DNA of 57,599 nt, from sequence record NC_073038.1. One strand, 5' to 3'. Of this stretch, positions 14,142-46,273 are shown one piece after another. The notes under the pieces are model-generated. The model saw only the letters and a program-made list of their open reading frames with translations. It had not been told where the DNA came from and ran no database searches. The translations under genes and the position numbers were made by a program. How positions within the stretch are numbered: the first letter of the stretch is position 1; every line of letters begins with the position of its first letter. The DNA is from Pseudomonas phage AAT-1.

Positions 14142-14185
14142 TCGATGGGGTAATAATAGCGGGAAGAAGGTATCACTGGAGCCCC
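14142..14185 (-). promoter_or_regulatory. Conserved leftward promoter-like element P1 (GGGGCTCC..N..CTATTATTACCCCATCGA on minus strand)
   Basis: One of 4 copies sharing a GGGRGCTCCC box, a TATWAT -10-like hexamer and a CCCATCGA box, each 20-45 nt upstream of a minus-strand start codon. Confidence 0.5.
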
Positions 14186-14400
14186 TTGTTTAGATTATTT
14201 TTTATATTTTCTAGGGATGATTGATAATCTAAACCTATCTAAACCACCATCTAAGGCAGCAGGCAGTCTGCAGTCCTTGTCCGGCAAGGCTATCTGGACC
14301 TTCTGGACCTTCTAGGGCATCTCTCGACGCCGTGGCCGACCGTGGCCGGCTTGTCGGGTGTTCGTTTTCCTGGCGCAACACGGTCGAAAAGGCTCGTGCG
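14186..14400. promoter_or_regulatory. AT-rich regulatory region A
   Basis: About 30% GC stretch in a 65% GC genome. TCTAAACC x2 at 14221-14241 (+). ATCTGGACC x2 (inverse of GGTCCAGAT) and CTAGGGCATCT at 14290-14325. CGTGGCCGA direct repeats at 14326-14348. A roughly 40-bp block at 14351-14392 is homologous (inverted) to 54262-54300. Confidence 0.5.
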
Positions 14401-14684
14401 GCCCAAAATCAGCCTAAGGCCTTGGTGCGCAAGGCTTTTCGTGTACGAGCCTGGTTTTTACGGGGTCCAGAAGGCTCGTATAGCCACAACGTTGGCATAG
14501 GTTCATGGGGTTACGGGCCGCACGGGCTGCAGCATTATCCGCTCCATAGCGTGCGAGCGCGGACGACGTCCGAGCCCGCGCTCGCTGACCCGGCAGAGGC
14601 GTGACGCCCGGCAAGGGGTCGAATCGTCGGGCGATCCGGCACCAAACCAAGCACCACTTTCAACCTCTGTCTAGGAGAAATACC

Positions 14685-15614
14685 ATGGCTTCTGTAACCC
14701 TTGCCGAATCGGCGAAGCTGGCGCAGGACGAACTCGTCGCCGGCGTCATCGAGAACGTCATCACCGTCAACGAGATGTTCGAGCTGCTGCCCTTCGACGG
14801 CATCGATGGCAACGCTCTCGCCTACAACCGCGAGAACGCCCTGGGCGACGTCCAGATGGCTGGCGTCGGCTCGACCATCACCGCCAAGGCCGCCGCGACC
14901 TTCACGCAGGTGACCTCCACCCTGACCACCATCATCGGCGACGCCGAGGTTAACGGTCTGATCCAGGCCACTCGCTCCGGCGACGGCAACGACCAGAAGG
15001 CGGTCCAGATCGCCTCCAAGGCGAAGAGCTGCGGCCGCAAGTACCAGGACCAGATGATTAACGGCGATGGCACTGGCGCCAACATGACCGGCATGCTCGG
15101 CCTCGTTGCCGCGGGCCAGACCATCTCCGCCAATAACGGCGCCGCGAACGGCGCGGCCCTGTCCTTCGAGGACCTGGACGCGCTGATCGACCTGGTGACC
15201 GACAAGGACGGCCAGGTGGACTACCTGATGATGAACGGCCGCACCCGCCGTGCCTACCTGGCGCTGCTCCGCGCCCTGGGCGGCACCTCGCCGGGTGACA
15301 TCTACACCATGGTCTCCGGCCGTCAGGTGCCGGCCTACCGCGGCATCCCGATCTTCCGCAACGACTGGATCCCCATCAACCAGACCACCGGTACCAGCAC
15401 CAACACCACCACGGTGTTCGCCGGCACCCTGGACGACGGCTCCCGTAGCCATGGCATCGCCGGCCTGACCGCCGAGCGCATGGCTGGCATCAACATCAAG
15501 GAGGTCGGTGAGAAGGAAGACGCGGACGAGTCCATCACTCGCGTGGTGTGGTACTGCGGCCTGGCGCTCTTCAACGAGAAGGGCCTTGCCGCGCTCGAGG
15601 GCGTCACCAACTAA
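14685..15614 (+). CDS. Major capsid protein (HK97-like)
   Basis: 309 aa from the ATG after a TAGGAGAAATACC SD. Typical major-capsid composition and position, followed by a partial terminator. Confidence 0.75.
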   Translation: MASVTLAESAKLAQDELVAGVIENVITVNEMFELLPFDGIDGNALAYNRENALGDVQMAGVGSTITAKAAATFTQVTSTLTTIIGDAEVNGLIQATRSGDGNDQKAVQIASKAKSCGRKYQDQMINGDGTGANMTGMLGLVAAGQTISANNGAANGAALSFEDLDALIDLVTDKDGQVDYLMMNGRTRRAYLALLRALGGTSPGDIYTMVSGRQVPAYRGIPIFRNDWIPINQTTGTSTNTTTVFAGTLDDGSRSHGIAGLTAERMAGINIKEVGEKEDADESITRVVWYCGLALFNEKGLAALEGVTN

Positions 15615-15629
15615 CCAGCAGACCGGTGG

Positions 15630-15665
15630 CCCTCCCGCAGCTGACGCTGCGGGAGGGCTTTCTGG
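15630..15665 (+). terminator. Intrinsic terminator after capsid gene
   Basis: ccctcccgcag-ctgacg-ctgcgggaggg followed by ctttctgg. Confidence 0.55.
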
Positions 15666-15688
15666 CATAAAGTCGAAGGAGAAAAGAG

Positions 15689-16153
15689 ATGGCATCCGTC
15701 ACCCAGAAGTTCGTCCTGGTCGGCCCGCACGCTGGCAAGACCATGAACGTCAACGGACACGAGTTCGTCGACGGCGAGTACACTTTCCAGGGCAGCGCCG
15801 AGCAGGTCGCAGTGCTGGCCCGCGTCTTCAAGCGCTATGCGGCCTTGCCGGCCGAGCACGCAGAACTTGCTGAGCTCAAAGCCAAGCAGGCTGCTCCGGC
15901 TGCTCCGGCTGCTCCGGCTGCTCCGGCTGCTCCGGCTGCTCCGGCTGCTCCGGCTGCTCCGGCTGCAGGCAAGCCCACTCTTGGCGAGGCGATTGGCGCG
16001 CTTGACCCCGAGAACGACAAGCACTGGACCTCCAACAACCTACCGGCCCTCGACGTGCTTGAGGAGCTGACCGGCAAGAAGGTCGCTCGCAACGAAGTCG
16101 ACGCCGTGGCCGAGGGCTACACCCGCGCCAAGGCTCGCGCTGCTAAGCAGTAA
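15689..16153 (+). CDS. Hypothetical head-associated protein with (Ala-Ala-Pro)x8 linker
   Basis: 154 aa. N-terminal globular part, then an AAPAAP... linker, then a C-terminal domain. GAAGGAGAAAAGAG SD. Confidence 0.5.
   Translation: MASVTQKFVLVGPHAGKTMNVNGHEFVDGEYTFQGSAEQVAVLARVFKRYAALPAEHAELAELKAKQAAPAAPAAPAAPAAPAAPAAPAAPAAGKPTLGEAIGALDPENDKHWTSNNLPALDVLEELTGKKVARNEVDAVAEGYTRAKARAAKQ
15890..15961 (+). repeat. Tandem 9-bp repeat (gctgctccg x8) encoding (AAP)8
   Basis: Perfect tandem copies visible directly in the sequence. Confidence 0.9.
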
Positions 16154-16163
16154 GGAGTAGGAC

Positions 16164-16679
16164 ATGACGATCAAGGTCCAGAACGAGAACGGAACCGTCG
16201 AGGGCGCCAACTCCTACGTGGACGCGGCGGCCGTGCGTGCCTTCTGGCTGGACCGTGGCGTCGACCTCTCCGCCAAGACCGACGACGAGCTGTCGGTCGC
16301 TGCCGTGCGCGCGACCGACTACCTCGACGCGAAGTACCGCTGGACGGGCTACCAGCTCTACCGCCTGCAGGGCACGCAGTGGCCTCGCGGCGGTGTGACG
16401 TCCTTCCTGCGTGGGCTTCCCCCGGCGCTGGTCAGCGCAGCATGCATGCTAGCGCAACGGGCGCTGACCAAGCCGCTCATGCCGGACCCGACCTTCGACG
16501 CCTCCGGGCAACTGGTCACCGAAAAGACCACTGAGGTCGGGCCCATCAAGACAGGCGTCAAGTTCGCCGCGCCCACTGGCGTCAAGTCCATGACGCCGGA
16601 ATATCCCGAGGTCACCCTGATGCTGCAGGCCGCCGGCCTGATCGCGTCGGGCAACTCCGGCGAGATTGGGAGGGGCTGA
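16164..16679 (+). CDS. Head-tail connector/adaptor protein (putative)
   Basis: 171 aa, AAGGAG SD, in the position of gp6-like adaptors. Confidence 0.45.
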   Translation: MTIKVQNENGTVEGANSYVDAAAVRAFWLDRGVDLSAKTDDELSVAAVRATDYLDAKYRWTGYQLYRLQGTQWPRGGVTSFLRGLPPALVSAACMLAQRALTKPLMPDPTFDASGQLVTEKTTEVGPIKTGVKFAAPTGVKSMTPEYPEVTLMLQAAGLIASGNSGEIGRG

Positions 16680-16681
16680 GC

Positions 16682-17074
16682 ATGGCCTTCGACTACGCTG
16701 CGGTGCGCGAGGAGGCCAAGGCCATCCTGGACGAGTTCGGCGGGCAGATGACCGTCAGGCGCTACACCGACACGAGCAACGCCGTGGCCGGGACCGTCTC
16801 GCGCGTCGTCAGCCAGGAACAGACTCTGACGGCGGTCATCCTGCCGGCGTCACAAGGGACTCTCGAGGCCTTCGACGTGCGGTTCATGTCTGACCTGTTG
16901 GACAGTACCGACGTGCGGTTCACGATCATGTCCGCCAGCGGTGCGGCGTTCACACCGGCACCGAAGGACGAGGTCGAGTTCTGGGAAGACGGCAAGTGGC
17001 AAGTGATGGGATGCACTCCGCTGAACGTGAACGGGACGCCCGTCATCTTCAGCGTCGGATTGAAGAGGCCCTGA
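16682..17074 (+). CDS. Head-tail joining/head closure protein (putative)
   Basis: 130 aa, translationally coupled, in the structural module. Confidence 0.4.
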   Translation: MAFDYAAVREEAKAILDEFGGQMTVRRYTDTSNAVAGTVSRVVSQEQTLTAVILPASQGTLEAFDVRFMSDLLDSTDVRFTIMSASGAAFTPAPKDEVEFWEDGKWQVMGCTPLNVNGTPVIFSVGLKRP

Positions 17075-17075
17075 C

Positions 17076-17477
17076 ATGGCCGGCAGATTCGAGAGCCAGC
17101 TGCGCGGCTTCGGCATAAAGGCGCTGGACAAGGTTGACAAGATCAGGCGGGCCTCGGTGCTCGAGCTGTTCAAGCTAATCATCTACGCATCGCCGGTCGA
17201 CACGGGTCGGCTGCGTGGCAACTGGCAGACGACCATCAACTCGCCTGCCACGGCCCAGATCGAGCGCACAGACGCCAACGGCGGTCTGGCACTCGCGGAG
17301 GCCATGGCAAACCTGGGTGGCCTGCTAGACGTAGTATGGTTTACCAACAATCTGCCCTATGCCGAGCGCATCGAGTACGACGGCTGGAGCAGGCAGGCGC
17401 CAGAGGGCATGGTGCGTAAGCACGTGGCGCAGTGGCGCAGGATAGTTGAGGCCAAGGCGCGAGCCCTGGGCCGATAG
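17076..17477 (+). CDS. HK97 gp10-like tail completion/neck protein
   Basis: ASPVDTGRLRGNW motif characteristic of the Phage_HK97_gp10 family. Confidence 0.6.
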   Translation: MAGRFESQLRGFGIKALDKVDKIRRASVLELFKLIIYASPVDTGRLRGNWQTTINSPATAQIERTDANGGLALAEAMANLGGLLDVVWFTNNLPYAERIEYDGWSRQAPEGMVRKHVAQWRRIVEAKARALGR

Positions 17478-17492
17478 AGGAGGAGTTTGACA

Positions 17493-17915
17493 ATGGCTGT
17501 GAACCCGTATTCGGGTCTGCGAGGGGCGCTGATGCAGGGAGTCGAGGACTCCCCGCTCGGACTGCCGTACGCCGCCGAGAACTCCCCCTTCACGAAGCCG
17601 ACGGACCAGAGCCCCTGGGCGTCGGCCTTCGTGCTGATGAACCAGCCCTCTCCCGCCACGCTGGGCGCTGAGGGGCAGGATGCGCACGATGGCATCCTGC
17701 AGATCGACCTGAACTATCCGCTGATGACCGGCGAGGCGGCCGTGACGGCCAAGGCGGACGAGCTGTCAGACTTCTTCAAGGCGGGCAAGCGACTTGCCCA
17801 CTCCGGGGTCGAGCTCACGGTCACCTCGTGCGGCCGCTCACGCGGGCGCGAGGTGGATGGATGGTATCGCGTGAGCATGACAGTCACCTGGGAAGCCCGG
17901 GTGCCCCGAAACTAA
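17493..17915 (+). CDS. Tail terminator-like protein (putative)
   Basis: ATG at 17493 after a GAGGAGGAG SD (the track's TTG at 17487 is less likely). Lies just upstream of the major tail gene. Confidence 0.4.
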   Translation: MAVNPYSGLRGALMQGVEDSPLGLPYAAENSPFTKPTDQSPWASAFVLMNQPSPATLGAEGQDAHDGILQIDLNYPLMTGEAAVTAKADELSDFFKAGKRLAHSGVELTVTSCGRSRGREVDGWYRVSMTVTWEARVPRN

Positions 17916-17933
17916 CCTCTTAGGAGAACGACC

Positions 17934-18872
17934 ATGGCAAACGGCAGCCGCCACAGCATGCGCATCGTCGCCGAGTCGGCCTACGGCACGACCCCGGCAA
18001 CGCCCGCCTTCGACATCATCCGCCATACCGGCACCACCCTCGGCCTGTCCAAGGAGTCCCTGCAGTCTGAGGAGCTCCGCGACGACCGCCAGATCGCGGA
18101 CTTCCGCCACGGGGCCTACCAGGTTGGCGGCGACATCAACATCGAGCTGTCCTACGGCAGCTTCGACGAGCTGCTCGAGGCCGTCCTGTGCGGCACCTGG
18201 CAGACCGACTCGCCCGTGGTCGGCACCGATCGCCTGAAGGCCGGCACCGTGCGTCGTTCCTTCACGATCGAGCGCTTCTTCGGCGACATCCTGACGGTGG
18301 ACAAGCCCTACCACCGCTTCACCGGCGTCGAGTTCAACACCATGTCTCTGGCGATCAACGCCAATGCGATGATTACCGGCAGCTTCGGTGTGCTGGGCCA
18401 GAACATGACCACCAGCACGGCCATCGTGGCGGGGGCCACCTACAACTCGGCCACCACCACGAGCCCGCTGGACTCGTTTACCGGCGCGCTGCAGGAGGCA
18501 GGCACCCCCATCGCCGTCATCACGGAGATTCAGCTCAACGTGGAGAACGGGCTCGAGGCTCGCTTCGTGGTCGGTTCCAAGCAGTCGATCCGCCCGTCGA
18601 TCGGCCGCTCGAACATCTCCGGCCAGGTGACCGCGTACTTCGAGAACTCGACCCTGCTGGACAAGTTCATCAACGAGACCGAGTCCAGCATCGTGTTCGA
18701 GCTGCCGGACGGCGCTGGCAACCTGTACGAGGTCACGCTGCCGCGCATCAAGTACACTGGCGGCCAGCCGGACGTCGACGGCGAGGGCCCGATCACCCTG
18801 AGCATGCCCTTCCAGGCGCTGCTCGACTCGGTGACTGGCACCAACATCATAATCGACCGCACGCCGGCCTGA
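17934..18872 (+). CDS. Major tail (tube) protein
   Basis: 312 aa, Ser/Thr/Gly-rich beta-type composition, strong SD, upstream of the G/GT chaperones. Confidence 0.65.
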   Translation: MANGSRHSMRIVAESAYGTTPATPAFDIIRHTGTTLGLSKESLQSEELRDDRQIADFRHGAYQVGGDINIELSYGSFDELLEAVLCGTWQTDSPVVGTDRLKAGTVRRSFTIERFFGDILTVDKPYHRFTGVEFNTMSLAINANAMITGSFGVLGQNMTTSTAIVAGATYNSATTTSPLDSFTGALQEAGTPIAVITEIQLNVENGLEARFVVGSKQSIRPSIGRSNISGQVTAYFENSTLLDKFINETESSIVFELPDGAGNLYEVTLPRIKYTGGQPDVDGEGPITLSMPFQALLDSVTGTNIIIDRTPA

Positions 18873-18900
18873 TAGGCTGGCACACTAGGAGAGAAGTGGC

Positions 18901-19353
18901 ATGACCGATAACGATAACAAGGCCGCGGGCGCGGTCACCGGCATGGACGCATTCTTCACCCGCAGTCGGGCGAACGAGGGGCTGGAGTTGCCCCTCTACC
19001 TCCCCAACGGGCAGAAGAGTGAGCACTGGGTGCGCATCCTCGGGGTCGACTCCGATTCCTTCCGCAACGCGGAGGCGGAGTCCCGGCGTGATGCCTTCCG
19101 CATCGCGCAGATCGAGGACCTGACGGACCGGGCCAAGGCCATAGCGGACAGCAAGCGCCGCCTGGTCGCCAGCCTGGTGGTCGCCTGGTCGTTCGACCGG
19201 CCGTGCAACGTGGACGAGGTCGAGGCCTTCTTCCGCGAGGCCCCGCAGATCATGGACGCCATCGACCTGGCTGCGAGTAAGCGCGCACTTTTTTTCGGGG
19301 CAGGGTCGAGCAGCTCGCGGCCTACGCCGAGCACGAGTTCAAGCTCGACCTGA
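18901..19353 (+). CDS. Tail assembly chaperone G
   Basis: 150 aa ORF directly upstream of the tape measure gene. Contains the slippery run T_TTT_TTC at 19290-19296. Confidence 0.65.
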   Translation: MTDNDNKAAGAVTGMDAFFTRSRANEGLELPLYLPNGQKSEHWVRILGVDSDSFRNAEAESRRDAFRIAQIEDLTDRAKAIADSKRRLVASLVVAWSFDRPCNVDEVEAFFREAPQIMDAIDLAASKRALFFGAGSSSSRPTPSTSSSST

Positions 19354-19694
19354 TCCCGAAGGGGTCCAAGCAGACGCTGCGCGAGTCGCTCATGCAGGTC
19401 TGGAAGACCCTAAAGCGTAAGCCGCCACAACTGGCGGAGGCGCCCGAGCTCCCGGAGGAGCTCGGGTATGTCTGGGAGTGGTTCAGGGAGGTGTTCGCGG
19501 GTGAGCCGCTGACGTACCAGGAGCTGCAGGCGTGGTCCGGCATGACGGGCAAGCGGCTGCAGGGCTGGGAGGCCGAGCTGATTAAGTCCCTCGATCGTAT
19601 ATTCTGGAAGGTGCAGCATGGCAACCACCGACGTGGCAAGTCTGGCGATCAGGGTCGAGTCCCTGCAGGTGGCGGAGGCCAACCGTCGCCTTAA
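18901..19694 (+). CDS. Tail assembly chaperone GT (-1 programmed frameshift at 19290-19296 joining frame 1 to frame 0)
   Basis: XXXYYYZ heptamer t ttt ttc. The -1 frame is open from the slip site (..ALFF/RGRVEQLAAY..) to a stop at 19694 and overlaps the TMP start. This is the canonical G-GT arrangement. Confidence 0.55.
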
Positions 19695-22104: not shown

Positions 22105-22114
22105 GGAGATAGGC

Positions 22115-23626: not shown

Positions 23627-23636
23627 GGAGAACGAC

Positions 23637-24632: not shown

Positions 24633-24633
24633 T

Positions 24634-33515: not shown

Positions 33516-33560
33516 TCGATGGGTTCCATTATACGCCTTCTGCGGGGTTCGGGAGCCCCA
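33516..33560 (-). promoter_or_regulatory. Conserved leftward promoter-like element P3
   Basis: Minus strand reads gggGCTCCCgaaccccgcagaaggcgTATAATggaaCCCATCGA. Confidence 0.5.
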
Positions 33561-33598
33561 TCGGGCGACTTTTTTCCATTATTTTTGCAGACGCTGGC

Positions 33599-34372: not shown

Positions 34373-34407
34373 TCGATGGAGTAATAATAGATGGAAAGCG
34401 GACTGCT
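34373..34407 (-). promoter_or_regulatory. Conserved leftward promoter-like element P2
   Basis: Minus strand reads GGGGGCTCCCagcagtccgctttccatCTATTATTACtCCATCGA. Confidence 0.5.
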
Positions 34408-34484
34408 GGGAGCCCCCTCTAGCAACTTTTTTTTAGACCAGCAAAACATAAGGGGAGACCGAAGTCTCCCCTTATGATATTAGC

Positions 34485-35828: not shown

Positions 35829-36244
35829 CACTCCACGACCTCCGTCAGCGCCTCAGCAAGTTCGAGCACGACCTCGTCACCCCAGGTGTTCTTGGCGGCG
35901 TTGTAGGCCCACACGACGAGCCGGCAGTTCCCCATAGTGTAGCCGAGGGCCGAGTCACGCCGGTCAATCGTCGGACTCCACGGGTTGGCCTTGGTGAAGG
36001 TGCCAAGGTCATAGTCAAACGGCAGGCGTGAGACCTCGCATTGCCCGCGGTCCAGACGCTCGCGCACCCACTCGACGGTCAGGTCGAACTCAAGGCCCCT
36101 CTGCCGGGCCCGGCTGCGCGCCTTGTGGAACAGGTACTGGGCGGGGTTGTTCTCCTTCCAGGCCTGTCTGGACTCGCGACTGCGCTCGGGGTGGCGCTCT
36201 CGCCATCGCCGGGCATACTCCGCCTTCTCTTCCTTCGTAGCCAT
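35828..36244 (-). CDS. HNH/endonuclease VII-like protein (putative)
   Basis: 138 aa from MATKEEK. C-terminal ..WSPTIDRRDSALGYTMGNCRLVVWAYNAAKNTW resembles HNH-family nuclease cores. Weak call. Confidence 0.35.
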   Translation of the reverse strand: MATKEEKAEYARRWRERHPERSRESRQAWKENNPAQYLFHKARSRARQRGLEFDLTVEWVRERLDRGQCEVSRLPFDYDLGTFTKANPWSPTIDRRDSALGYTMGNCRLVVWAYNAAKNTWGDEVVLELAEALTEVVE

Positions 36245-36310
36245 GCGCCCCTCCAAAATAAAAATGCAACCCGTATATCGTACGGGTTGCATCAGGGCAA
36301 CAATGCCAGC

Positions 36311-38004: not shown

Positions 38005-38088
38005 GGTTGACTCCTTACAGGTTGAACGTGGAAACTAGATGATGACATAGCCGGGGGCGTGAGCACGCCGCCATCCCGGCTTGAGTAG

Positions 38089-38316
38089 CTAAACGCTGAC
38101 GCCCTCGGCCCGTAGGATGCGGCGGACGGAGCAGCGGCAATTCTCGAGGGCGCGCCAGTCGCTCGGGGTCTTGGCGCAGGAGTAGGAGAACTTGCGGCCA
38201 CCAAGCTCCCACTTGACCTTCACGTGCTTGCGGCCGACGTGGACGGAGTACTCCAGGCCTGCGGCCTCGAGCACGGTGCCCACGACGTCGGACTCCTGTC
38301 GTCGGGCCACGGTCAT
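38089..38316 (-). CDS. Hypothetical small protein
   Basis: 75 aa ORF. Confidence 0.35.
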   Translation of the reverse strand: MTVARRQESDVVGTVLEAAGLEYSVHVGRKHVKVKWELGGRKFSYSCAKTPSDWRALENCRCSVRRILRAEGVSV

Positions 38317-39308
38317 TCCCCCTTCTTGGCCCGCGGCTGCTTTGCCCCGAAGACCACGTGGCCATCTGGGACGATGAGGCGGGCCATCGCACTGTCCTCG
38401 CTCAGCTCGTACCCAAGCCCGTTCTCCTTGTTGATGGTGAACAGGTGGGACAGCACGGCGGAGCGGTCCAGGTCCAGCTTGGCCATGGCCTCGGCGATGG
38501 GGAAAAACCCCGACACGAACATGCGGGCGACCGTGGCGCGCTTGCCCGGCTCAGGGATCGGCTTCAGGGCCTCCACGACGACGGGCTTGCCGCTGGTGCG
38601 CTTCCTGGGCTCGGGCGAGCCCTCTGGGCGCTCTGGCTTGGCGGCTCGGACGGGGCGCTCTGGCTCCACCCAGGCGAACAGGTCGAAGCCCTCTGGCACG
38701 ACCAGCCGAGCGCAGTCGCTCATCAGCTCGTAGCCGACGCCGTGGTCCTTGTTGAGGGTGAACAGGTGAGATAGCACCCCGGACCGTGTCAGGCCGAGAC
38801 GGGCCATTGCCTCGTGCAGAGACTGGGGCTCCTCGTGCATGAAGAAGCGCGCCACGTCGGCCCGCTTGCTGGATGGGTTGCACGGGCGGAGAGCCGCCTC
38901 GTCCACCTGCTTGCCGCCGCGAGCCTTGTTCTCGTCGCGCTTCGCCGGGTCCGGCGGTGGCGGCAGGAACTTTGGCACCGGCTGGCCGAGCTCGGTCAGC
39001 ACGAGGGCGGCCACGCCGAAGTCGCGTTGGAACCCAAGCTTGACGGCCTCCTCCCACGCTTGGTTGATGTGGTCAGCCAGCTTCTCCGGCGTCACCTCCA
39101 CGTCGACGGCCGAGGCCAGCTCGCCGCAGCGGTTGTTGACCTGGTAGGCCTCAAGCGTGAATGGGCTGAATATAGTGGAGCGCTTGTCGCCGGGGATGAT
39201 GACTGCGTGCCCGTGACCGCTGGTGGGAGGGTCGGTTATCTCGTACTTGTGCTTCCAGTAGTTCGGGGCGCCACCTCGGACGAAGTAGATGCGGGCGAAT
39301 CGGATCAT
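38313..39308 (-). CDS. Hypothetical protein with internally duplicated ~55-aa C-terminal modules
   Basis: ATG at 39308 after a CAGGAG SD. The two repeats SLHEAMARLGLTRSGVLSHLFTLNKDHGVGYELM... and IAEAMAKLDLDRSAVLSHLFTINKENGLGYELS... are clearly homologous. Confidence 0.45.
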   Translation of the reverse strand: MIRFARIYFVRGGAPNYWKHKYEITDPPTSGHGHAVIIPGDKRSTIFSPFTLEAYQVNNRCGELASAVDVEVTPEKLADHINQAWEEAVKLGFQRDFGVAALVLTELGQPVPKFLPPPPDPAKRDENKARGGKQVDEAALRPCNPSSKRADVARFFMHEEPQSLHEAMARLGLTRSGVLSHLFTLNKDHGVGYELMSDCARLVVPEGFDLFAWVEPERPVRAAKPERPEGSPEPRKRTSGKPVVVEALKPIPEPGKRATVARMFVSGFFPIAEAMAKLDLDRSAVLSHLFTINKENGLGYELSEDSAMARLIVPDGHVVFGAKQPRAKKGE

Positions 39309-39410
39309 GCTGTACTCCTGGCGGTACAAAGAGAAGAGGGACGTGCCTTTCGGTCACGTCCCTCATCTTACTGCCCGGGGCCAGCCCCGTGGACCATCAT
39401 CTTCCCGCGA

Positions 39411-39902
39411 TCACTCGAGGAAGCTCTGGCCCTCGCCGCTGGCCTGCTCGCCACCGGTCTCGCCAGCCGCCTGGGCCTTCTCGGCTTCCTTCTTGGCCTT
39501 GGCCTCGGCCTTCTCAGCGGCCTTGGCCTCCTTGGCGGCCTGCTTCTCGGCTTCCTTCTTGGCCTTGGCCTCGGCCTTCTCGGCCTCCTTCTTGGCCTTG
39601 GCCTCGGCCTTCTCGGCCTCCTTGGCGGCCTTGGCCTCAGCCTTGGCGTCCGCCTTCAGCTCGCGGGCGGTCGGCACGTTCTCGCCGTCGCCGCGCAGCT
39701 TGTTGCGGTACCAGTTGATGCTGGCCATGGAGGTCTTGGCCTCCGGGAACTGCTCCTTCACCGCGGCGAGGACCTCCTCGTTGGTCTTGCCCTCGCGGAT
39801 CAGGGTCTTGGCGACGTCGCCGACGCCCGGGCCCTTCGGCTCCTTGGTCTGCTCGGCCGCGCCCTCGGCGCCCTCGGTCTGGGTGTTCAGCTCTTCGCTC
39901 AT
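39411..39902 (-). CDS. Lys/Ala/Glu-rich (histone H1-like) protein with N-terminal helix-loop-helix module
   Basis: N-terminus EEVLAAVKEQFPEAKTSMASINWYRNKLRG. Then (AKAEAKAKKEAEK)n encoded by about 39-bp tandem DNA repeats. Confidence 0.5.
   Translation of the reverse strand: MSEELNTQTEGAEGAAEQTKEPKGPGVGDVAKTLIREGKTNEEVLAAVKEQFPEAKTSMASINWYRNKLRGDGENVPTARELKADAKAEAKAAKEAEKAEAKAKKEAEKAEAKAKKEAEKQAAKEAKAAEKAEAKAKKEAEKAQAAGETGGEQASGEGQSFLE
39470..39655 (-). repeat. Imperfect ~39-bp tandem repeats (ggccttggcctcggccttctcggcctccttctt...)
   Basis: Visible directly in the sequence. They encode the KAEAKAK repeats. Confidence 0.7.
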
Positions 39903-40038
39903 GGTTCTCTCCTTCAGAGTGGTTTGGTCAGACTGCGCCGCCCGATCGGGCGACGTGCCCGGCGTGCGTCAGTGGTTGCAAGTGTACCGCCGGGCTGCTG
40001 TGACCTGGAGCCGTCGTTCGCGCGCCCGGTCGGGGCTA

Positions 40039-41535
40039 TCACAGCTGCGCCCGGAATAGGGCCAGCAGACGATCGCGGAGGCCACGCCCTGCCAAGGACT
40101 CCGACACCGAGCGCTTCTCGCCGAGGTTGGCGAGGATGTACTCGTCGACAGTGCCTGGGGTGACGAAGTCCTTGATGGTCACGGTCTTGCCGCCGATCTG
40201 GGTCGCCCGCTCGTTCGCCTGGTCCCGCTCGATCAGGTCGAAGGTGTGGGAGTACCACAGGATCAGGTCGGCCGCCGACAGGTCGAGGCCCTGTCCACCA
40301 GCCTTCGGCTGGCCGACAAAGACCCGCACCCCTGGATCGCTGTTGAAGCTGTCGATGGCCTGCTGACGCTTGGCCTGCGAGTGGACCGCGCCGTGGTACT
40401 CCACGCAGCGGATGCCCTCCTTGGACAGGGAGCGCACGACGCGGCGGATGTCCTCGCGGTACTTGCACCAGACGATGACCTTGCGGTCCGACGAACGCAC
40501 CTCGTCCAGCATGGCCTGCAGCCTCGGGTTGTCCTCGTCGGCGACGAGCTCCCGTACCTGCCCGTCCACGTCGACGACGAAGCCGCCAAGCATCTGCTGT
40601 AGCTTGACTAGGCGGGCGCCGCCGTCTACGGCCTCGACCTCGCCGCCGTCCTCGAGCTCCAGGATCATCTCCTTGACGAGCGTGCGATACGCGTCCATCA
40701 GGCGCTCTGGCAGCGCCACGGTGCGCTCATCCATGACCAGGTCAGGCATGTCGTCGACGTCCTCGCGGAGGACCACTGAGGACCACCGGGCCATCCGCTC
40801 CTGCAGGTCGTCCAGGTTGCGGTAGTGGTCCAGCCGGTCGTACGATCTGCCGCCCTTCGTCCGCTCCTGGACGTAGTAGGCATAGTGCCCCTCGAAGTCG
40901 GCGAACGTGTCGAAGCCTAGCGCCTTGTCCTCGAGCAGCTCGAACTGGCTGTAGGCAGCCAGCGGGCTATTCGACACGGCGGTGCCCGTCAGGATGCGAC
41001 GGACCCGGCAGTACCGCTTGAGGGACCGCGCCCGCTTGGTGCGCTTGGAGCCCGGCGAGCGGAAGTCGTGCGACTCGTCCACCACGAGCATGACCCGCCC
41101 CTTGTACTTTCGCAGGAAGCGCCCGATGAGCTTGGCGGGCTTGTCGTGGATGATGGACTCCGAGTTGACGGCTAGCACGGCCAGCGCCTCGGACGGCTTC
41201 GCCGAGAGCACCCGCTCAAGGGAGGCTGCGTGCTCAGGCTTGGCCGCCTCGGACGCCTGCCACGCATGGGCTACGTACGGCACCGTGTTCCACATGTGGA
41301 TTGGTAGCTGGCGCCGCACCCAGTTGACGTGGACCCCATTCGGGGCTATGACCAGCACTGCGTCAATGTCGCCCCTGGCGCGGCGGTAGCAGGCGACGTC
41401 CAGGGTGGCCTTGGTCTTCCCGGTCCGCATCTGCCAGAGCAGCGCGCGGGCGTCGTCATCGCGGTGCCGCTCCCACTCGATTTGCTGGTGCTTGAAGTTT
41501 GCCAGGCGCAGCGGGAACTCAGTCATGGTAGCCAT
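40039..41535 (-). CDS. SNF2/DEAD-like helicase
   Basis: Walker A MRTGKTK, DESH motif II and a C-terminal helicase domain (..VFVGQPKAGGQGLDL..). 498 aa. Confidence 0.75.
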   Translation of the reverse strand: MATMTEFPLRLANFKHQQIEWERHRDDDARALLWQMRTGKTKATLDVACYRRARGDIDAVLVIAPNGVHVNWVRRQLPIHMWNTVPYVAHAWQASEAAKPEHAASLERVLSAKPSEALAVLAVNSESIIHDKPAKLIGRFLRKYKGRVMLVVDESHDFRSPGSKRTKRARSLKRYCRVRRILTGTAVSNSPLAAYSQFELLEDKALGFDTFADFEGHYAYYVQERTKGGRSYDRLDHYRNLDDLQERMARWSSVVLREDVDDMPDLVMDERTVALPERLMDAYRTLVKEMILELEDGGEVEAVDGGARLVKLQQMLGGFVVDVDGQVRELVADEDNPRLQAMLDEVRSSDRKVIVWCKYREDIRRVVRSLSKEGIRCVEYHGAVHSQAKRQQAIDSFNSDPGVRVFVGQPKAGGQGLDLSAADLILWYSHTFDLIERDQANERATQIGGKTVTIKDFVTPGTVDEYILANLGEKRSVSESLAGRGLRDRLLALFRAQL

Positions 41536-41722
41536 CGTCTTCTCCTAGCACTTGGTACGGCGGCATGTCCTCCGTCATGCGCGAGGAGCTCGGCTGCCTG
41601 CGCATCCGCTTGTCCATGGCGCACCCGCAAAGGTAGTATGGCCCAACGCCGTCCCAGCCGCGGCCGTGGCGCGGGCACAGGCCCGCCTTCTTCTCTTTGT
41701 TCGTCTGCATCTCGTTCCTCAC
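41519..41722 (-). CDS. Small Cys-containing protein (possible)
   Basis: 67 aa ORF that exactly fills the gap between the polymerase stop and the helicase start. Confidence 0.3.
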   Translation of the reverse strand: MRNEMQTNKEKKAGLCPRHGRGWDGVGPYYLCGCAMDKRMRRQPSSSRMTEDMPPYQVLGEDDGYHD

Positions 41723-43992
41723 TTCTTGTACCTATACCCTGCCCAGCCTTCGGCCGCGACGGGGCATCCGTCAGCCCAGTCGGGCACGTGGGCCATGACG
41801 GCTTCGAAGTCCTCCACGCTGCCGACGCCCTCGTCGCACTCCGCGATGAGCTCGTCGTGCACTGACAGGATGACGTCGTACATGCCCTCCTGGTGGCAGC
41901 GCAGCATGGCATCCGCCATCAGGTCGCGGGCCGAGGCCTGCGTTATGTTCTCCACCAGCATCCCGCCGTAGGTGTCCTGCCGGCGCCACTTCTTGGTGTA
42001 CGGGTCGACGCCCATGTAGGTTAGGCAGTCGCGCTTCTCGCCCCACGGCGTCGCCTTCTTCTCGACGCGCGGGTCACAGTAGCCCAGGAGCCGACCGCTC
42101 GGGAGCCGACAGTGCAGGAACCCGTCAAAGCACATCCAGCGCACGCGGCCGCAGCGGAACTGCCGGCCAGGCTGCTGTACGGCGGCGATGGCCGCGGCCT
42201 CCTGGTCCCACCACATCTTCTTGACCCGCCAGAACTTCTTGCGGTACTTGTCAACGATGAGCTGGGCGAAGTCCAGCTCGATGAAGATGCCCCACTTCTC
42301 GGCAAGCGTCGCCTGGAACTTCTTGGCCCCCATCTGGTAGCCCAGGCCGAGGACGGCCTGCTTGCCCATCTGGCGCTCGTCGGCCTGCTTGACCTTGTCC
42401 GTGATTGGCCGCCCGTAAATCTCCGTGGCCATCGCCATGTAGATGCACTCGCGACGGCGGAACACGTCCAGCGCCTCGTCGTCTCCGGCAAGCCACAGCA
42501 CCACGCGAGCCTCGATGGCCGCGTAGTCCGCCACCATCAGCCGCCTACCGGGCGACGGGACGATCATCCCGCGCAGCGCGTGCGACAGGAGCGTCATCAC
42601 GTCCCCGTACATCAGCTCCATCAGGTCGACGTCGCGGGTCTTGATGACCTCCCACGCGAAGTCCATGTCCTTGATGCTGCCGCGGGGGAAGTTGTGCGGC
42701 TGCACGCCGGACCCTGACCACCGGCCCGTGCCGGCACCGTGGTAGAGCAGGCCGCCGTGGACCCGCCAGGTGCCCGGAGCGGCCCAGTTCTGCGCCGCAA
42801 CGAACTTGGCAGTGCTAGACCTGCCGAGCGCCCGGACGAGCTCCAGGCCGCGCCTGACCTCGGCCCCTAGGTCCTCGCGACGGAGCCACGAGTCGATGGT
42901 GCCACCCTGTGTGTCCTCGAGCGGCAGGCCCATCTCGTTGAACCACTGTATCATGCGGGCCCGCTGCGTCGCCTTCTGCACCTGCCCGTCCGTGAGGGCT
43001 ACCAGCTCGGCGTTGAGCTCCGAGAAGATGCCGTCCACCACCTCCAGCGCCGCGGCTATGCCCTCGTCGTCTAGCTGGAACCCGCGCTCGTTGATGGCCT
43101 GGTCCATGAGGTACATCTCCGTCTCCTTGGCGGAGAGGTCGCGCAGGCGGTGCGACGCTGCCTCCTCAGCCAGGACGTCCTGCCGGCAGTAGGCCCACAG
43201 GCGCTCGAACTCCTCCACGCCCTCGTGCCAGAAGAACGGCAGGCGGTACGACCGGTCCACCTGCGCGCCGTCCTCCCACGTGGCATCCACCAGCCAGCCC
43301 TCGTCCGTCGGCGAGACCGTGAAGTGTAGGGACTTGACGACCTGCTTGGCGGTGCCGATGTCGGAGTTCTCCAGTAGCCACTGCTTTACCTCGGCCTTGC
43401 GCGGCTTGCGCGGCTTGGAGACCTTCTTCATGACCTTGGCGCCCTCGGTGTCCTTCTTGACGGCAAGGGCCAGGGCCACGGTCAGCATGTCCAGCGAGCG
43501 CGGCAGGGAGTAGGCTGCAGCCTTGGCGGCGGAGCACCGCCACTGCCGGTGGCCGATCGCGGGCCAGCCCAGCTTGGGCACGCAGATGTTGGTCCAGATG
43601 CCGCGCTCGAACCACGCGTTGTGGGCCTCCACGAGCCCGCCGGAGACTATCCAGTCGAAGAGCTCGTCCAGCTCAGCATGGTCTGACTCGCGGATGCCGA
43701 GGTGCGGGTAGGCCGGGTGCCACAAGGCCGTGCGGCCCTCCTCCCAGTGAGGAAGACGGAAGGCCAGGCACATCACGGAGGTGGTGGGGTCGAGGGAGTA
43801 GCGCCACGACCCGCAGTCCTTGATGGAGCAGGCCGAGCGCGTCTCGAAGTCGATCGTGGCCTTCGGCGGGTTGTCGTACCGGAGCTCCCGGGTGGCGAGT
43901 ACCGACGCGGAGGGCCGCATCTTGGTCGCCACCACCGGCTCCAGGGTTGTCTCTGTCGTCAAGGGAGGGTCTCCTTCTAAGCAGTCTCCCAT
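41719..43992 (-). CDS. DNA polymerase I (family A) with 3'-5' exonuclease domain
   Basis: Exo I IDFETRS, motif A MVADYAAIEARV, motif B K..VLGLGYQMG, motif C VHDELI. Start uncertain: the ATG at 43992 abuts the upstream stop, alternatives are 44055 or 43920. Confidence 0.8.
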   Translation of the reverse strand: MGDCLEGDPPLTTETTLEPVVATKMRPSASVLATRELRYDNPPKATIDFETRSACSIKDCGSWRYSLDPTTSVMCLAFRLPHWEEGRTALWHPAYPHLGIRESDHAELDELFDWIVSGGLVEAHNAWFERGIWTNICVPKLGWPAIGHRQWRCSAAKAAAYSLPRSLDMLTVALALAVKKDTEGAKVMKKVSKPRKPRKAEVKQWLLENSDIGTAKQVVKSLHFTVSPTDEGWLVDATWEDGAQVDRSYRLPFFWHEGVEEFERLWAYCRQDVLAEEAASHRLRDLSAKETEMYLMDQAINERGFQLDDEGIAAALEVVDGIFSELNAELVALTDGQVQKATQRARMIQWFNEMGLPLEDTQGGTIDSWLRREDLGAEVRRGLELVRALGRSSTAKFVAAQNWAAPGTWRVHGGLLYHGAGTGRWSGSGVQPHNFPRGSIKDMDFAWEVIKTRDVDLMELMYGDVMTLLSHALRGMIVPSPGRRLMVADYAAIEARVVLWLAGDDEALDVFRRRECIYMAMATEIYGRPITDKVKQADERQMGKQAVLGLGYQMGAKKFQATLAEKWGIFIELDFAQLIVDKYRKKFWRVKKMWWDQEAAAIAAVQQPGRQFRCGRVRWMCFDGFLHCRLPSGRLLGYCDPRVEKKATPWGEKRDCLTYMGVDPYTKKWRRQDTYGGMLVENITQASARDLMADAMLRCHQEGMYDVILSVHDELIAECDEGVGSVEDFEAVMAHVPDWADGCPVAAEGWAGYRYKK

Positions 43993-43993
43993 G

Positions 43994-44446
43994 CTACCGC
44001 GGCGGGTCGGCGAAGTCCACCGCCGTCTCCCAGGCTCGGAAGACCTCGTTGGCACGAAGGCACTCCTCGCGCGTCAGCTCGCCGACGTGGAAGCGCCGCT
44101 CGGGCCCGAAGCCCATGAGGCCCGCCATGAGGCCGTAGACCTCGCCGCGCGACCGCAGGCCGGACTTCCAGGTGGGGTCTATCATGGCGTGCAGTGCCCT
44201 CCGCAGCGACCGAGTCTCGTCGTCCGCCATCAGACCCAGCGGGTAGACCGAGCGCGGATGGCACCCGACGAAGGCACCGCAGGCCATGCACAGATAGATC
44301 ATGGGCCAGTCGCCGCACTCCCGGCCGTAGACGACTTCGTTGCCAACCAGGACCACGAGGTCGTCGCCGCAGCAGTCGCAGGCCGTCGGGGGCTCCCGCC
44401 AGTCGGCGAACCGCTTGCGGTAGTTGTACGGTCGAAGGCTCACCAT
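43994..44446 (-). CDS. DUF3268-like zinc-finger protein
   Basis: CDCCGDDL...YLCMACGAFVGCHPRSVYPLG...SLRRALHAMIDPTWKSG matches the phage DUF3268 pattern. Confidence 0.5.
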   Translation of the reverse strand: MVSLRPYNYRKRFADWREPPTACDCCGDDLVVLVGNEVVYGRECGDWPMIYLCMACGAFVGCHPRSVYPLGLMADDETRSLRRALHAMIDPTWKSGLRSRGEVYGLMAGLMGFGPERRFHVGELTREECLRANEVFRAWETAVDFADPPR

Positions 44447-44835
44447 GAGGACTCGTCCTCCAGTATGGTCTGCATGTAGTGCGAGACTATTGGGTCACTG
44501 TCGGAGGTGTGCCCATTGGCCAGCGCACGCGCGGCCTTTTCCAGTCGCCCGACGTCGATGGCGCCTATGCGCGCCTCCCGGACCAGCGCGTTCTTCGTGG
44601 CGTAGATGGGCCGCAGGGCCGTCAGCTTGACGACCTCGAGCTCCTGCCACCGACGTCCGATGGATCGTATGACGTCGGAGAGCTTGACGTAGCGGACGCC
44701 GGGCACTAGGCCGTCTGGCCGATCCACCGGATTGCCGGCGAAGTCGGCCACGGCGTTGAGGTCTCTCAGGGGCCACGCGCCGAAGTGGCACAGCGGGCAC
44801 GGCTCCGACAGGTTGTGCTCCGTGCAGCGGCTCAT
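44440..44835 (-). CDS. Hypothetical protein
   Basis: Start at MSRCTEHN (131 aa). The upstream extension in the ORF track is Arg/Pro-rich artefact. Confidence 0.4.
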   Translation of the reverse strand: MSRCTEHNLSEPCPLCHFGAWPLRDLNAVADFAGNPVDRPDGLVPGVRYVKLSDVIRSIGRRWQELEVVKLTALRPIYATKNALVREARIGAIDVGRLEKAARALANGHTSDSDPIVSHYMQTILEDESSW

Positions 44836-45095
44836 CGGGTCGCCTCCGCCGCGTAGGCCTTCATGGTGTGCAGGAAGGTACGCCACAGCAGGTCGCTGCA
44901 GCCCATGTCGGACCAGTGCACGAGCACCGAGCGCGGCACCATGAGGTTGTCGCGAGACGCAGGGACCCGCGTCACCGCGTAGTCCTCGCCCTCTAGCTCT
45001 ACCCACTGACCGACGCCGAGCTGCACGCCGACCGGTCGGAACGCGTGGCCGTCCAGGGGGCCTCCGATGATGAGGAATATCTGCTGGCGGGCCAT
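44832..45095 (-). CDS. Hypothetical protein
   Basis: 87 aa from MARQQIFLI. Confidence 0.35.
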   Translation of the reverse strand: MARQQIFLIIGGPLDGHAFRPVGVQLGVGQWVELEGEDYAVTRVPASRDNLMVPRSVLVHWSDMGCSDLLWRTFLHTMKAYAAEATR

Positions 45096-45427
45096 CACTC
45101 GTCCTCGAGCTCGTGCGGGTAGTAGAAGACCTCCGATGAGGCCCCGTCGCGCAGCACCCACACCTTGCCCACGGGGTTCGGCTCCTGGAACACAACGACG
45201 CCGTGGGCGCCAGGGTGGAAGCCGGCCGACCTCGTGGCCGCGACACGGTCGCCGCGCTTGAAGCGCCGGACGGCCGGGAGCTTAAGGGTCGAGTCGACCC
45301 GCTCGATTGAGAGCCGGCGGCCGTGGCGGACCACGTAGTATGGTCGGCCCTCCTCCATGTGGCGTAACGGCGAGCGCACGCCGCCAGTCAGCAGCAGCAC
45401 AATAACCCAGCGCAAGAATGCCTTCAT
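45095..45427 (-). CDS. Small secreted/signal-peptide protein
   Basis: N-terminal MKAFLRWVIVLLLTGGVRSP looks like a signal peptide. Confidence 0.4.
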   Translation of the reverse strand: MKAFLRWVIVLLLTGGVRSPLRHMEEGRPYYVVRHGRRLSIERVDSTLKLPAVRRFKRGDRVAATRSAGFHPGAHGVVVFQEPNPVGKVWVLRDGASSEVFYYPHELEDE

Positions 45428-45428
45428 G

Positions 45429-45617
45429 TTAGTCCTCCTCGTTGTCTAGGCCAAGCACGCCCGCCGCGGCCCAGATGGCCTCGCCGTAGGTGCGCGAGCG
45501 CGTGCCCGGCGTCTCCGACCGGTCGTCGAGGTCGTACAGCGCCCAGCCAGAGTCGTCCCTCATGAACTGGAAGCCTGCGTCCTCGACGCGATCCCTCATC
45601 CGGACGGTCGGGGTCAT
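45429..45617 (-). CDS. Hypothetical small acidic protein
   Basis: 62 aa ORF. Confidence 0.3.
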   Translation of the reverse strand: MTPTVRMRDRVEDAGFQFMRDDSGWALYDLDDRSETPGTRSRTYGEAIWAAAGVLGLDNEED

Positions 45618-45841
45618 CCCGCCGTCTTCTCGTACTTACCGTCGGCACGGCGAGTGTACTCCTGCCCCTTGCCTGGGCCCAGCAGACCGCGGCCGGGGCC
45701 TAGTGCGTGGCACGAGGGGCACATGCAGGCCCATGCACCCATCTTGGTCGCGGCGTCATAGAACTTGCCGTCGATCGGCGTGTCGCAGGTGTCGCACTTC
45801 TTGGGCACGGGGCCCATCCAAACTGTCGCCATGGTTGTCAT
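45614..45841 (-). CDS. Small zinc-ribbon protein
   Basis: CDTCDT...CMCPSCH, i.e. CxxC...CxxC. Confidence 0.4.
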   Translation of the reverse strand: MTTMATVWMGPVPKKCDTCDTPIDGKFYDAATKMGAWACMCPSCHALGPGRGLLGPGKGQEYTRRADGKYEKTAG

Positions 45842-45876
45842 CCTATAAAGGGAGGGCCCGAAGGCCCTCCGCGTTG

Positions 45877-46185
45877 TTAGCCCTCGAAGCCCGGGACGTA
45901 GAAGCTCGGGAAGTAGAGGATGGTGCCGAGGCCCATCGCGTCCGTCCGTGCGTCCTGCATCATCTCAGGCAGCACCGACAGGATCGCCTCTCGGTCCTCG
46001 GCGTCCATGTCGTTGGCAGCCTCGAGCAGCTGGCCGAAGAAGGCCAGCGGGGTCACGTCTCTGTCCAGTGTGAAGCCGGCGCAGGTGCGGCCGAACATCA
46101 CACGACCGGAATAGTTGGGGTAGAGCTCGACGCCGTCCATCTCCTCGGCGACTTCCGCCACCATGGCGAGTAGTTCTTGTGCCAT
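45877..46185 (-). CDS. Hypothetical protein
   Basis: 102 aa, the first gene downstream of promoter element P4. Confidence 0.4.
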   Translation of the reverse strand: MAQELLAMVAEVAEEMDGVELYPNYSGRVMFGRTCAGFTLDRDVTPLAFFGQLLEAANDMDAEDREAILSVLPEMMQDARTDAMGLGTILYFPSFYVPGFEG

Positions 46186-46229
46186 CTCAGTTCTCCATCG
46201 ATCCGCCAGCGCGGCGCGCTGTTCAACGG

Positions 46230-46273
46230 TCGATGGGTTTATTATAGTGGGAGAACCTTGGCATGGGAGCCCT
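46230..46273 (-). promoter_or_regulatory. Conserved leftward promoter-like element P4
   Basis: Minus strand reads GAGGGCTCCCatgccaaggttctcccaCTATAATAAaCCCATCGA. Confidence 0.5.

Follow-up and report, generated by a model that had tools for sequence, protein, structure and literature searches.

A conserved promoter-like element with a G/C-rich box in place of the -35 hexamer in Pseudomonas phage AAT-1 and its relatives

We analyzed the 57,599-nucleotide (nt) sequence of Pseudomonas phage AAT-1 (NC_073038.1; the whole stretch is referred to as the window) and found four copies of a conserved element, here designated class A, that are very probably promoters. All four are on the minus strand, and each precedes the Shine-Dalgarno sequence and ATG of a leftward gene. 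When both strands were scanned with the pattern GGGCTCC-N15-25-TATWAT-N2-6-CCATCGA, four matches were obtained against 0.00 expected from 100 dinucleotide shuffles. These were at 14142-14184, 33516-33558, 34373-34415, and 46230-46272 (sites 1 to 4, respectively); the window contained no other match on the minus strand and none to the full pattern on the plus strand. The four minus-strand copies listed in the original prediction were thus confirmed, with no additional random matches genome-wide. The upstream box, which had been given as GGGRGCTCCC, is instead (R)GGGGCTCC(C), and site 3, which had been ended at 34407, extends about 8 to 10 nt farther, to 34415-34417.

The distance from GGGCTCC to CCATCGA is exactly 29 nt at all four sites, and that from GGGCTCC to the -10 hexamer is 19 nt at sites 1, 3, and 4 and 18 nt at site 2. 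CCATCGA lies 22, 57, 24, and 44 nt from the likely ATG at sites 1 to 4, respectively, the site 2 start codon (33458) having been chosen from its Shine-Dalgarno sequence and from relatives. The 20- to 45-nt interval originally proposed holds for sites 1, 3, and 4 and is exceeded at site 2. An A/T-rich tract is found upstream of every copy (57 to 83% A+T over the 30 nt 5' of the box), and strong intrinsic terminators are situated directly upstream of site 3 (34476-34447) and site 4 (46310-46287). The predicted promoters are as follows (aa, amino acids).

14142..14212, minus strand: class A promoter 1, preceding the YbiA operon, which reads leftward (11302-14119); tract rich in A/T at ~14211-14191, GGGGCTCC at 14185-14178, TATTAT at 14158-14153, CCATCGA at 14148-14142; predicted start A14146; ATG at 14119; orthologs in PaMx28, PA_LZ02, phiH1, Xp12, AXL1, and DLP4.
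33516..33585, minus strand: class A promoter 2, serving the gene for a 169-aa protein (32949-33458) and the genes that follow it; AAAAAAGTCG tract, GGGGCTCCC at 33559-33551, TATAAT at 33533-33528 (18-nt spacer), CCATCGA at 33522-33516; predicted start 33520 +/- 1.
34373..34440, minus strand: class A promoter 3, for a 253-aa gene (33599-34348); AAAAAAAAGTTG at 34434-34423, GGGGGCTCCC at 34417-34408, TATTAT at 34389-34384, CCATCGA at 34379-34373; predicted start A34377; ortholog kept in 13 IMG/VR loci.
46230..46290, minus strand: class A promoter 4, for a 102-aa gene (45877-46185) and replication genes (DNA polymerase and helicase); T/A tract shared with the terminator at 46310-46287, GGGCTCCC at 46272-46265, TATAAT at 46246-46241, CCATCGA at 46236-46230; predicted start A46234.

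The four copies have mutually unrelated spacers and flanks and so are not recent duplications. This bears on a different explanation, in which the element is not a promoter but a repeat that recent duplications or recombination events have spread among module boundaries, or else is a promoter for sigma54, sigma32, or a phage RNA polymerase. The copies do occur at module boundaries, and the YbiA operon is a lower-GC insert, but the unrelated surroundings of the copies speak against a repeat, and we consider this whole set of explanations very improbable. We take the CCCCAT of site 1 to resemble a sigma32 -10; sigma32 was nevertheless rejected, as inspection revealed no CTTGAA 13 to 15 nt upstream of CCCAT. 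Sigma54, whose promoters read TGGCAC-N5-TTGCW, was also rejected: GG-N10-GC matches are at chance level (26 versus 23 expected), the class B boxes described below have GG-N9-GC, TTGC is not conserved, and the single good match (39977-39992) is not conserved in relatives. A promoter for a single-subunit, T7-like phage RNA polymerase was rejected on the grounds that conservation is bipartite with variable spacers, where such promoters have one contiguous block of ~20 bp (-17 to +6), and that TATAAT with a start at +7, as predicted here, is a sigma70-family signature. The annotations of PA_LZ02, PaMx28, PaMx74, Xp12, AXL1, phiH1, and Donnerlittchen include no RNA polymerase gene. The possibility that the A-tract and box form a plus-strand terminator was dismissed as well; the hairpins are weak and occur at only 2/4 sites.

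Over most of its length, the 57.6-kb window is ~96% identical to Pseudomonas phages PA_LZ02, phiH1, and phiH2, and it has ~88% identity with PaMx28 (genus Pamexvirus). Farther relatives are PaMx74, Janthinobacterium phage Donnerlittchen, and the Xanthomonas/Stenotrophomonas Bosavirus group (Xp12, Bosa, DLP4, and AXL1). We assign the window to a Pamexvirus-like Pseudomonas aeruginosa siphophage. Orthologs of all four elements, differing in their spacers, are present at the corresponding positions of PaMx28, PA_LZ02, and phiH1. Before the ybiA operon of Xp12, AXL1, and DLP4, the A/T tract, GGGGGCTCCC, the 19-nt spacer, and TATAAT are all kept, and the same layout also precedes the ortholog of the 253-aa gene in Xp12 and AXL1. 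The start-site box in these Xanthomonas/Stenotrophomonas phages reads CTCACACCA, so CCATCGA does not define the class and is only the start-site box of the present phage clade. At site 2, GGGGCTCCC is retained in the PaMx28, PaMx74, and Donnerlittchen types and lost in Xp12, AXL1, and Xoo-sp2, which retain CATAATGGAACCCATCGACG.

A search of IMG/VR driven by protein alignment of the 253-aa gene recovered 14 loci, of which 13 were examined; an exact-pattern scan of the same database gave only 3 loci, all from close relatives. A promoter-like element was present directly 5' of the 253-aa gene ortholog at every locus examined (13/13), with GGGGCTCCC 19 nt from the -10 at 11 of them; one locus had GCGCTCC, and one had a GGGGGCCCC variant farther away. 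Class A is conserved across Pamexvirus, Bosavirus, Xooduovirus, and unclassified relatives, and its box does not vary among the phages that infect Pseudomonas, Xanthomonas, Stenotrophomonas, and Janthinobacterium. We regard class A as a clade-specific phage promoter class, and the earlier proposal that it is phage specific is upheld by its conservation at orthologous positions while the spacers diverge.

We also noted a fifth class-A-like promoter in PA_LZ02 and phiH1 (CGCTCC-N19-TATAAT-GACTCCACACC); it and a small leftward gene (together at PA_LZ02 2937-3337) separate the large terminase gene from that for ribonucleotide reductase. The start of the window falls inside this promoter, its first 13 nt (1-13) not matching, and its end (57597-57599) is the terminase stop codon. 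From these boundaries, ~385 bp are either absent or cut at the boundary.

An information profile was built on 19 non-redundant promoters. It peaked at an A-run (-57 to -50), T-48, aggGGGCTCCCat (-41 to -29), CCC (-17 to -15), TATaAT (-12 to -7), and a C-A step in which the A is the 7th nt after the -10. T-12, A-11, T-10, A-8, and T-7 were invariant in the 19 non-redundant orthologs, the hexamer being TATTAT or TATAAT at the four window sites; the A of C(-1)A(+1) is generally the 7th nt after the -10 and is the 8th at site 2. The parts fixed across relatives are the A-tract (~-57 to -50; often AAAAAAGTTG), GGGGCTCCC (-39 to -31), TATWAT, and C(-1)A(+1). The box is not palindromic and occurs in one orientation relative to the -10, at a spacing of 19 nt (18 nt at site 2 and its orthologs). 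The hexamer in register with a -35, CTCCCA or CTCCAG, matches TTGACA at no more than 3/6 positions (for CTCCCA, only T-34, C-31, and A-30), the equivalent -35/-10 spacer is 17 bp, and there is no TGn extended -10, its place being taken by CCC at -17 to -15. A generic sigma70 scan of 1-20000, 30000-49999, and 46000-57599 (20001-29999 was left out) gave nothing at 10/12 or above and did not report the class A sites. In the distant relative L027, the corresponding DNA metabolism gene cluster has intergenic, canonical TTGACA-N17-TAnAnT promoters. In its predicted anatomy, class A corresponds to the promoters that a sigma70-family holoenzyme uses, except that the -35 is non-canonical. The combination of a sigma70-like -10 and a non-canonical upstream box that had been proposed was borne out by TATWAT at 4/4 sites and by a -35 match of 3/6 or less.

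This anatomy could also be explained by the host alone. In that case, the elements would be strong promoters that the unmodified sigma70 holoenzyme uses without any phage factor, through the A-tract (via the C-terminal domain of the alpha subunit), the consensus -10, and the weak in-register CTCCCA, while the G/C-rich box would be read by a conserved host component or would tune promoter strength or DNA structure. The perfect -10, the 17-bp equivalent spacer, the predicted CA start, the A-tract, and the in-register agreement of T-34, C-31, and A-30 with TTGACA all fit such a promoter. The invariance of GGGGCTCCC across phages of four bacterial genera does not; ordinary host promoters retain TTGACA. 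Moreover, to our knowledge, neither sigma70 region 4 nor any known host factor recognizes GGGGCTCCC. We regard the host-only explanation as somewhat unlikely; further points on both sides of it are given below.

A core of the element is more widely distributed than class A itself. The pattern GGCTCC-N18-20-TAnnnT has 9 matches on the two strands of the window (0.5 expected), of which 7 are intergenic. Three new intergenic matches define class B; they have GAACGA/TTCGA-YGGCTCC in common, are GC-rich upstream of it, and carry a -10 (TAYCAT or TACACT) that is weaker. Two further candidates share only a related layout. The predicted elements are as follows.

51327..51366, minus strand: class B, first leftward operon; TTCGA-CGGCTCC with GGCTCC at 51357-51352, 19 nt, TATCAT at 51332-51327.
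39981..40020, minus strand: class B, upstream of two genes, one for a 163-aa protein (39411-39902) and one for the 338-aa protein with two winged helices; GAACGA-CGGCTCC, 20 nt, TACACT.
1837..1868, plus strand: class-B-like, after the ribonucleotide reductase gene; AACGA-TGGCTCC, 19 nt, TAACAT.
51430..51465, plus strand: rightward promoter candidate for a ribbon-helix-helix (RHH)-like gene (51504-51689) and primase; CCGAC-GGTCCC with GGTCCC at 51435-51440, 19 nt, CATCAT at 51460-51465.
26..56, plus strand: candidate promoter ahead of the gene for ribonucleotide reductase (92-1819); GGTCCG at 26-31, 19 nt, CATGAT at 51-56; same layout as 51430-51465.

The box and spacing at 51327-51358 are kept in PaMx28, Xp12, and Donnerlittchen, with TGGCTTC in AXL1 and TCGGTCC in PaMx74. 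The element at 39981-40013 is kept in 7/7 relatives examined, together with 20 nt downstream that include CCACTGACGCACGCCGGGCA. That at 1837-1868 is kept in PaMx28 and Donnerlittchen, and PaMx74 has a similar element elsewhere. In alignments, the position of 51430-51465 is occupied by CGGCTCC-N19-TATAGT in Donnerlittchen and GGTTCC-N19-CATGAT in PaMx74. The candidate at 26-56 is the weakest member of the family and is included for its similarity of layout alone. At the position of site 4, Donnerlittchen has class A, whereas PaMx74, Xp12, and AXL1 have a class-B-like element (TGGCGTCC..CATGAT), which indicates that the two classes are interchangeable at one locus. The absence of a plus-strand copy noted in the original prediction therefore stands for the full class A element and fails for the core (GGCTCC/GGYYCC-19 nt-TAnnnT/CATSAT), which is on both strands. 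With core elements on the plus strand at 26-56, 1837-1868, and 51435-51465, the separate regulatory logic claimed for the rightward operons is unsupported in the form given.

As a separate observation, the plus-strand element at 1837-1868 overlaps an intrinsic terminator (1837-1890), with TAACAT in the hairpin loop, an arrangement kept in PaMx28 and Donnerlittchen. In addition, three minus-strand genes directly behind a class A or B promoter (39411-39902, 33599-34348, and 32949-33458) encode a common helical domain of ~45 aa with the pattern IADIIR..G.T.EEILAAV...P.AKT....V.YYRSK (PHROG cross-hits 17205, 17767, 38698, and 16873). Two of the three proteins also carry long Ala/Lys/Glu-rich repeats.

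The palindrome CGCAWTGCG has three exact copies in the window (0.92 expected), all inside class-B-type spacers and at a variable offset from the box.

34-42: palindrome CGCATTGCG, in the spacer of the ribonucleotide reductase promoter candidate.
51344-51352: palindrome CGCATTGCG, in the spacer of the first leftward operon promoter.
51445-51453: palindrome CGCAATGCG, in the spacer of the rightward divergent-region promoter.

Its variable offset within the spacers makes the palindrome operator-like, and a repressor of early genes probably binds it as its operator. A near-copy is also found in the leader of site 2 (~33505-33513). These observations are relevant to the notion that GGGGCTCCC is itself an operator, bound by a phage repressor, that overlaps the -35 of constitutive promoters and serves, as operators or stoperators do, in temporal shut-off or in maintenance of a carrier state. 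The box does overlap the -35 position, the candidate DNA-binding proteins described below (61-aa RHH-like and 338-aa double winged-helix) are present, and DLP4 is reported to form lysogens (PMC6469090). However, the box is asymmetric, has a single orientation, and keeps a fixed distance from the -10, as would an element read by polymerase; no canonical -35 lies beneath it; and the separate, true palindrome, with its variable position in the spacers, already has the properties of an operator. We consider it quite unlikely that GGGGCTCCC is an operator.

We propose instead that class A elements would be strong promoters for host core RNA polymerase carrying a sigma factor of the sigma70 family. 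An A-rich, UP (upstream promoter)-like tract at ~-57 to -50 and the asymmetric, G/C-rich (R)GGGGCTCCC, which takes the place of the -35 hexamer and spans -39 to -31, would direct a start at the A of C(-1)A(+1). They would re-initiate leftward transcription past terminators or gene ends. The box would be read together with the -10 by a polymerase-associated specificity factor, for which we favor a phage-encoded or virion-delivered protein, comparable to T4 MotA/AsiA sigma appropriation or to the cofactor postulated for phage YuA. Class B elements would be weaker promoters with a GGCTCC box and the same spacing, on both strands, to which the divergent early region would add the CGCAWTGCG operator. 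We infer a polymerase-associated reader because neither the sequence of the box nor its orientation or spacing varies, and yet it is unlike the known -35 consensus; we know of no -35 or -24 consensus that resembles GGGGCTCCC. Because the box is asymmetric, in a single orientation, and at fixed spacing, it would be read within the polymerase complex rather than by an independent dimeric regulator. An RNA-polymerase-associated phage factor would be the most likely reader. Our opinion of the complete reading, in which class A promoters include a dedicated non-host factor, is nearly but not quite evenly balanced. More tentative still is the specific proposal that GGGGCTCCC is the site of a phage-encoded or virion-delivered protein that replaces -35 recognition by sigma70 region 4, which would constitute a new sigma-appropriation-type system of Bradleyvirinae phages with hosts in Pseudomonas, Xanthomonas, Stenotrophomonas, and Janthinobacterium.

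Several observations weigh against the complete reading. The start sites are predictions from sequence. A search of ~30 early or small proteins with Pfam and PHROGs found no sigma factor, MotA/AsiA-like protein, or recognized transcription factor, as would be expected if the host acted alone, although remote homologs could be missed. The divergent-region promoters, presumably the earliest, also carry the box, so that its reader would be present at infection; an early phage protein is thus less favored as the reader than a component of the host or the virion, which is a further point for the host-only explanation. The UP element, consensus -10, and in-register 3/6 -35 might suffice for sigma70. 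Finally, DLP4 in its lysogen or carrier state expresses the ybiA operon but not cas4, a gene of the early-left operon (PMC6469090). The DLP4 ybiA operon lies behind a class A promoter, and its expression hints that class A can fire with host polymerase alone. Set against this, what is called a "lysogen" of DLP4 may be a carrier state in which some cells are lytic.

Three proteins encoded in the window were considered as possible trans-acting factors.

38313..39329, minus strand: candidate trans-acting DNA-binding protein of 338 aa, with an N-terminal domain and two tandem winged-helix domains.
51504..51689, plus strand: candidate small regulator of 61 aa with an RHH-like sequence pattern; first gene of the rightward early operon.
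6125-9733, plus strand: virion morphogenesis/minor head protein of 1202 aa with an N-terminal Mu-F-like domain.

The AlphaFold2 model of the 338-aa protein has a pLDDT (predicted local distance difference test) of 86.6 and an alpha/beta N-terminal domain. Its best Foldseek matches, to HlyU/ArsR, Z-alpha, and MarR winged helices, are weak (probability of ~0.9; E of 0.1 to 0.5). The gene has an internal duplication in which DNA repeats at 38402-38493 and 38723-38814, 77% identical, encode the winged-helix domains. The protein is conserved in all relatives examined and is annotated as a "transcription factor" in phiH1. As a specificity factor it was rejected: it has no support from co-variation, and a 35%-identical homolog is encoded in the L027 contig. 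The presence of this double winged-helix candidate in L027, which uses canonical TTGACA promoters, also counts against a dedicated phage factor. The 61-aa protein has a weak sequence match in the PDB to the regulator Reg576 (E = 0.011). It is a possible binder of the CGCAWTGCG palindromes, and the palindrome is more plausibly its target than is the box. Residues 1043 to 1200 of the 1202-aa protein form an NAD:arginine ADP-ribosyltransferase domain (PF01129; E = 6e-15). The PaMx74 homolog is 398 aa long and probably, judging by length alone, lacks this domain; PaMx74 still has class A promoters.

The closest known counterpart is in phage YuA (Yuavirus), a member of the same family, Mesyanzhinovviridae. 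The YuA repeats are annotated as "putative sigma70 promoter requiring phage-encoded cofactor" (GenBank; Ceyssens 2008), and nine such promoters have been mapped as start sites by ONT (Oxford Nanopore Technologies)-cappable-seq (Putzeys 2024, PMC10914365). Four earlier-reported YuA promoters were inactive in a promoter trap (PMC10914365), and this inactivity of analogous promoters without phage argues against the host-only explanation. Both phages have a multicopy, conserved intergenic motif on the coding strand, directly 5' of genes for DNA metabolism and of unknown function; both have a sigma70-like -10 (TATACT in YuA and TATWAT here) and neither has a phage RNA polymerase gene; and in some copies of both, exactly 33 nt separate the -10 from the AAAAAAGTTG tract upstream. 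The YuA motif, which we took from the GenBank features, differs in its upstream sequence (CTTTACTTCTTCGG-N8-CAC, versus GGGGCTCCC-N11-CCC-NN here) and in having a fair -35, TTTACT (4/6, versus 3/6 here). The window elements do not conform to the YuA consensus, CTTTACTTCTTCGG-N8-CACTATAC, having only the -10 type and the AAAAAAGTTG tract in common with it. Start sites are experimental in YuA, which also has a promoter trap result, and predicted for the elements described here.

Class A also resembles the T4 middle promoters (MotA/AsiA), in which the sigma70 -10 is kept, the -35 is replaced by an asymmetric phage box at a fixed distance and orientation, and transcription is restarted downstream of early units. 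The MotA box, (a/t)(a/t)(a/t)TGCTTtA, is centered at -30, whereas the G/C-rich box described here is centered at -35 (-41 to -29 = aggGGGCTCCCat) and is also found in the presumed earliest promoters; Pfam and PHROGs revealed no MotA/AsiA homolog among the ~30 proteins scanned. By sequence family, class A belongs with neither the T4 middle nor the YuA promoters, whose defining boxes it lacks. Like class A, the T4 early promoters, used with virion-injected Alt, are strong promoters with A-rich upstream tracts, but they have a recognizable -35 (GTTTAC). A further likeness to Alt is the ADP-ribosyltransferase domain at the C terminus of the 1202-aa head protein, and its presence in a virion protein means that a polymerase-modifying enzyme could arrive with the DNA. 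Unlike what such a role for the domain would suggest, PaMx74 keeps class A despite its short homolog. Finally, class A shares with canonical sigma70 promoters that have an UP element (e.g., rrnB P1) the -10, the 17-bp equivalent spacer, and a tract rich in A/T between -40 and -60, here a putative UP element; its predicted CA start, 7 nt past the -10, fits them as well. It differs from them in having CTCCCA within the invariant GGGGCTCCC as its -35, no TGn, and CCC at -17 to -15.

We found no description of this consensus in the literature on PaMx28, Pamexvirus, Mesyanzhinovviridae, DLP4, AXL1, PA_LZ02, and Lydia or by searching for the motif strings, and the GenBank records of relatives have at most one software-predicted promoter, beside the ybiA operon. 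The elements provide a promoter consensus for a whole phage clade, which includes candidate therapeutic phages of P. aeruginosa and Stenotrophomonas maltophilia as well as the classic 5-methylcytosine phage Xp12, and whose records are almost without promoter annotation. The consensus predicts start sites to the nucleotide and includes a short box that can be mutated, and it places the "moron" ybiA operon (expressed in DLP4 lysogens) and the replication genes under the same promoter class. If a phage factor does read the box, this would be a second -35 replacement system after T4 MotA/AsiA, and one whose host range differs. Engineering of Pseudomonas and Xanthomonas could also make use of the element as a compact promoter part, either infection dependent or very strong.

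The gene map of the window, which has a GC content of ~66%, was based on G+C content at third codon positions (GC3) and checked against annotated relatives.

92-11201, plus strand: rightward genes.
11302-14119, minus strand: leftward insert, the "YbiA operon" of the DLP4 and AXL1 papers, with a lower GC content.
14685 to ~31900, plus strand: structural and lysis genes.
32089-51290, minus strand: long leftward block for nucleotide metabolism and replication.
51290-51504: divergent region.
From 51504, plus strand: small protein, primase, and terminase, to the window end.

No promoter was identified for the late structural operon (14685 onward), and an Rfam search of the window found no known RNA family. 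The leftward block includes a thymidylate-synthase-like enzyme (36311-37210, minus strand) that is 73% identical to its Xp12 homolog, with dCMP deaminase, dihydrofolate reductase, and nucleotide pyrophosphohydrolase genes nearby (35364-35831, 34904-35359, and 37207-38004). In Xp12 DNA, 5-methylcytosine fully replaces cytosine. The DNA of the window phage, and hence the G/C-rich promoter box, may also be modified, and reading of the box might depend on this cytosine modification.

Short repeat arrays of the CTAGA, TTAGAT, and TCTAAAC type were seen in two A/T-richer non-coding regions, one upstream of the major head gene (14190-14330) and the other between the primase terminator and the terminase genes (54100-54450). 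Similar short repeats are present upstream of the ybiA promoter in Xp12, AXL1, DLP4, and PaMx74. These repeats could be iterons, packaging sites, or regulator sites.

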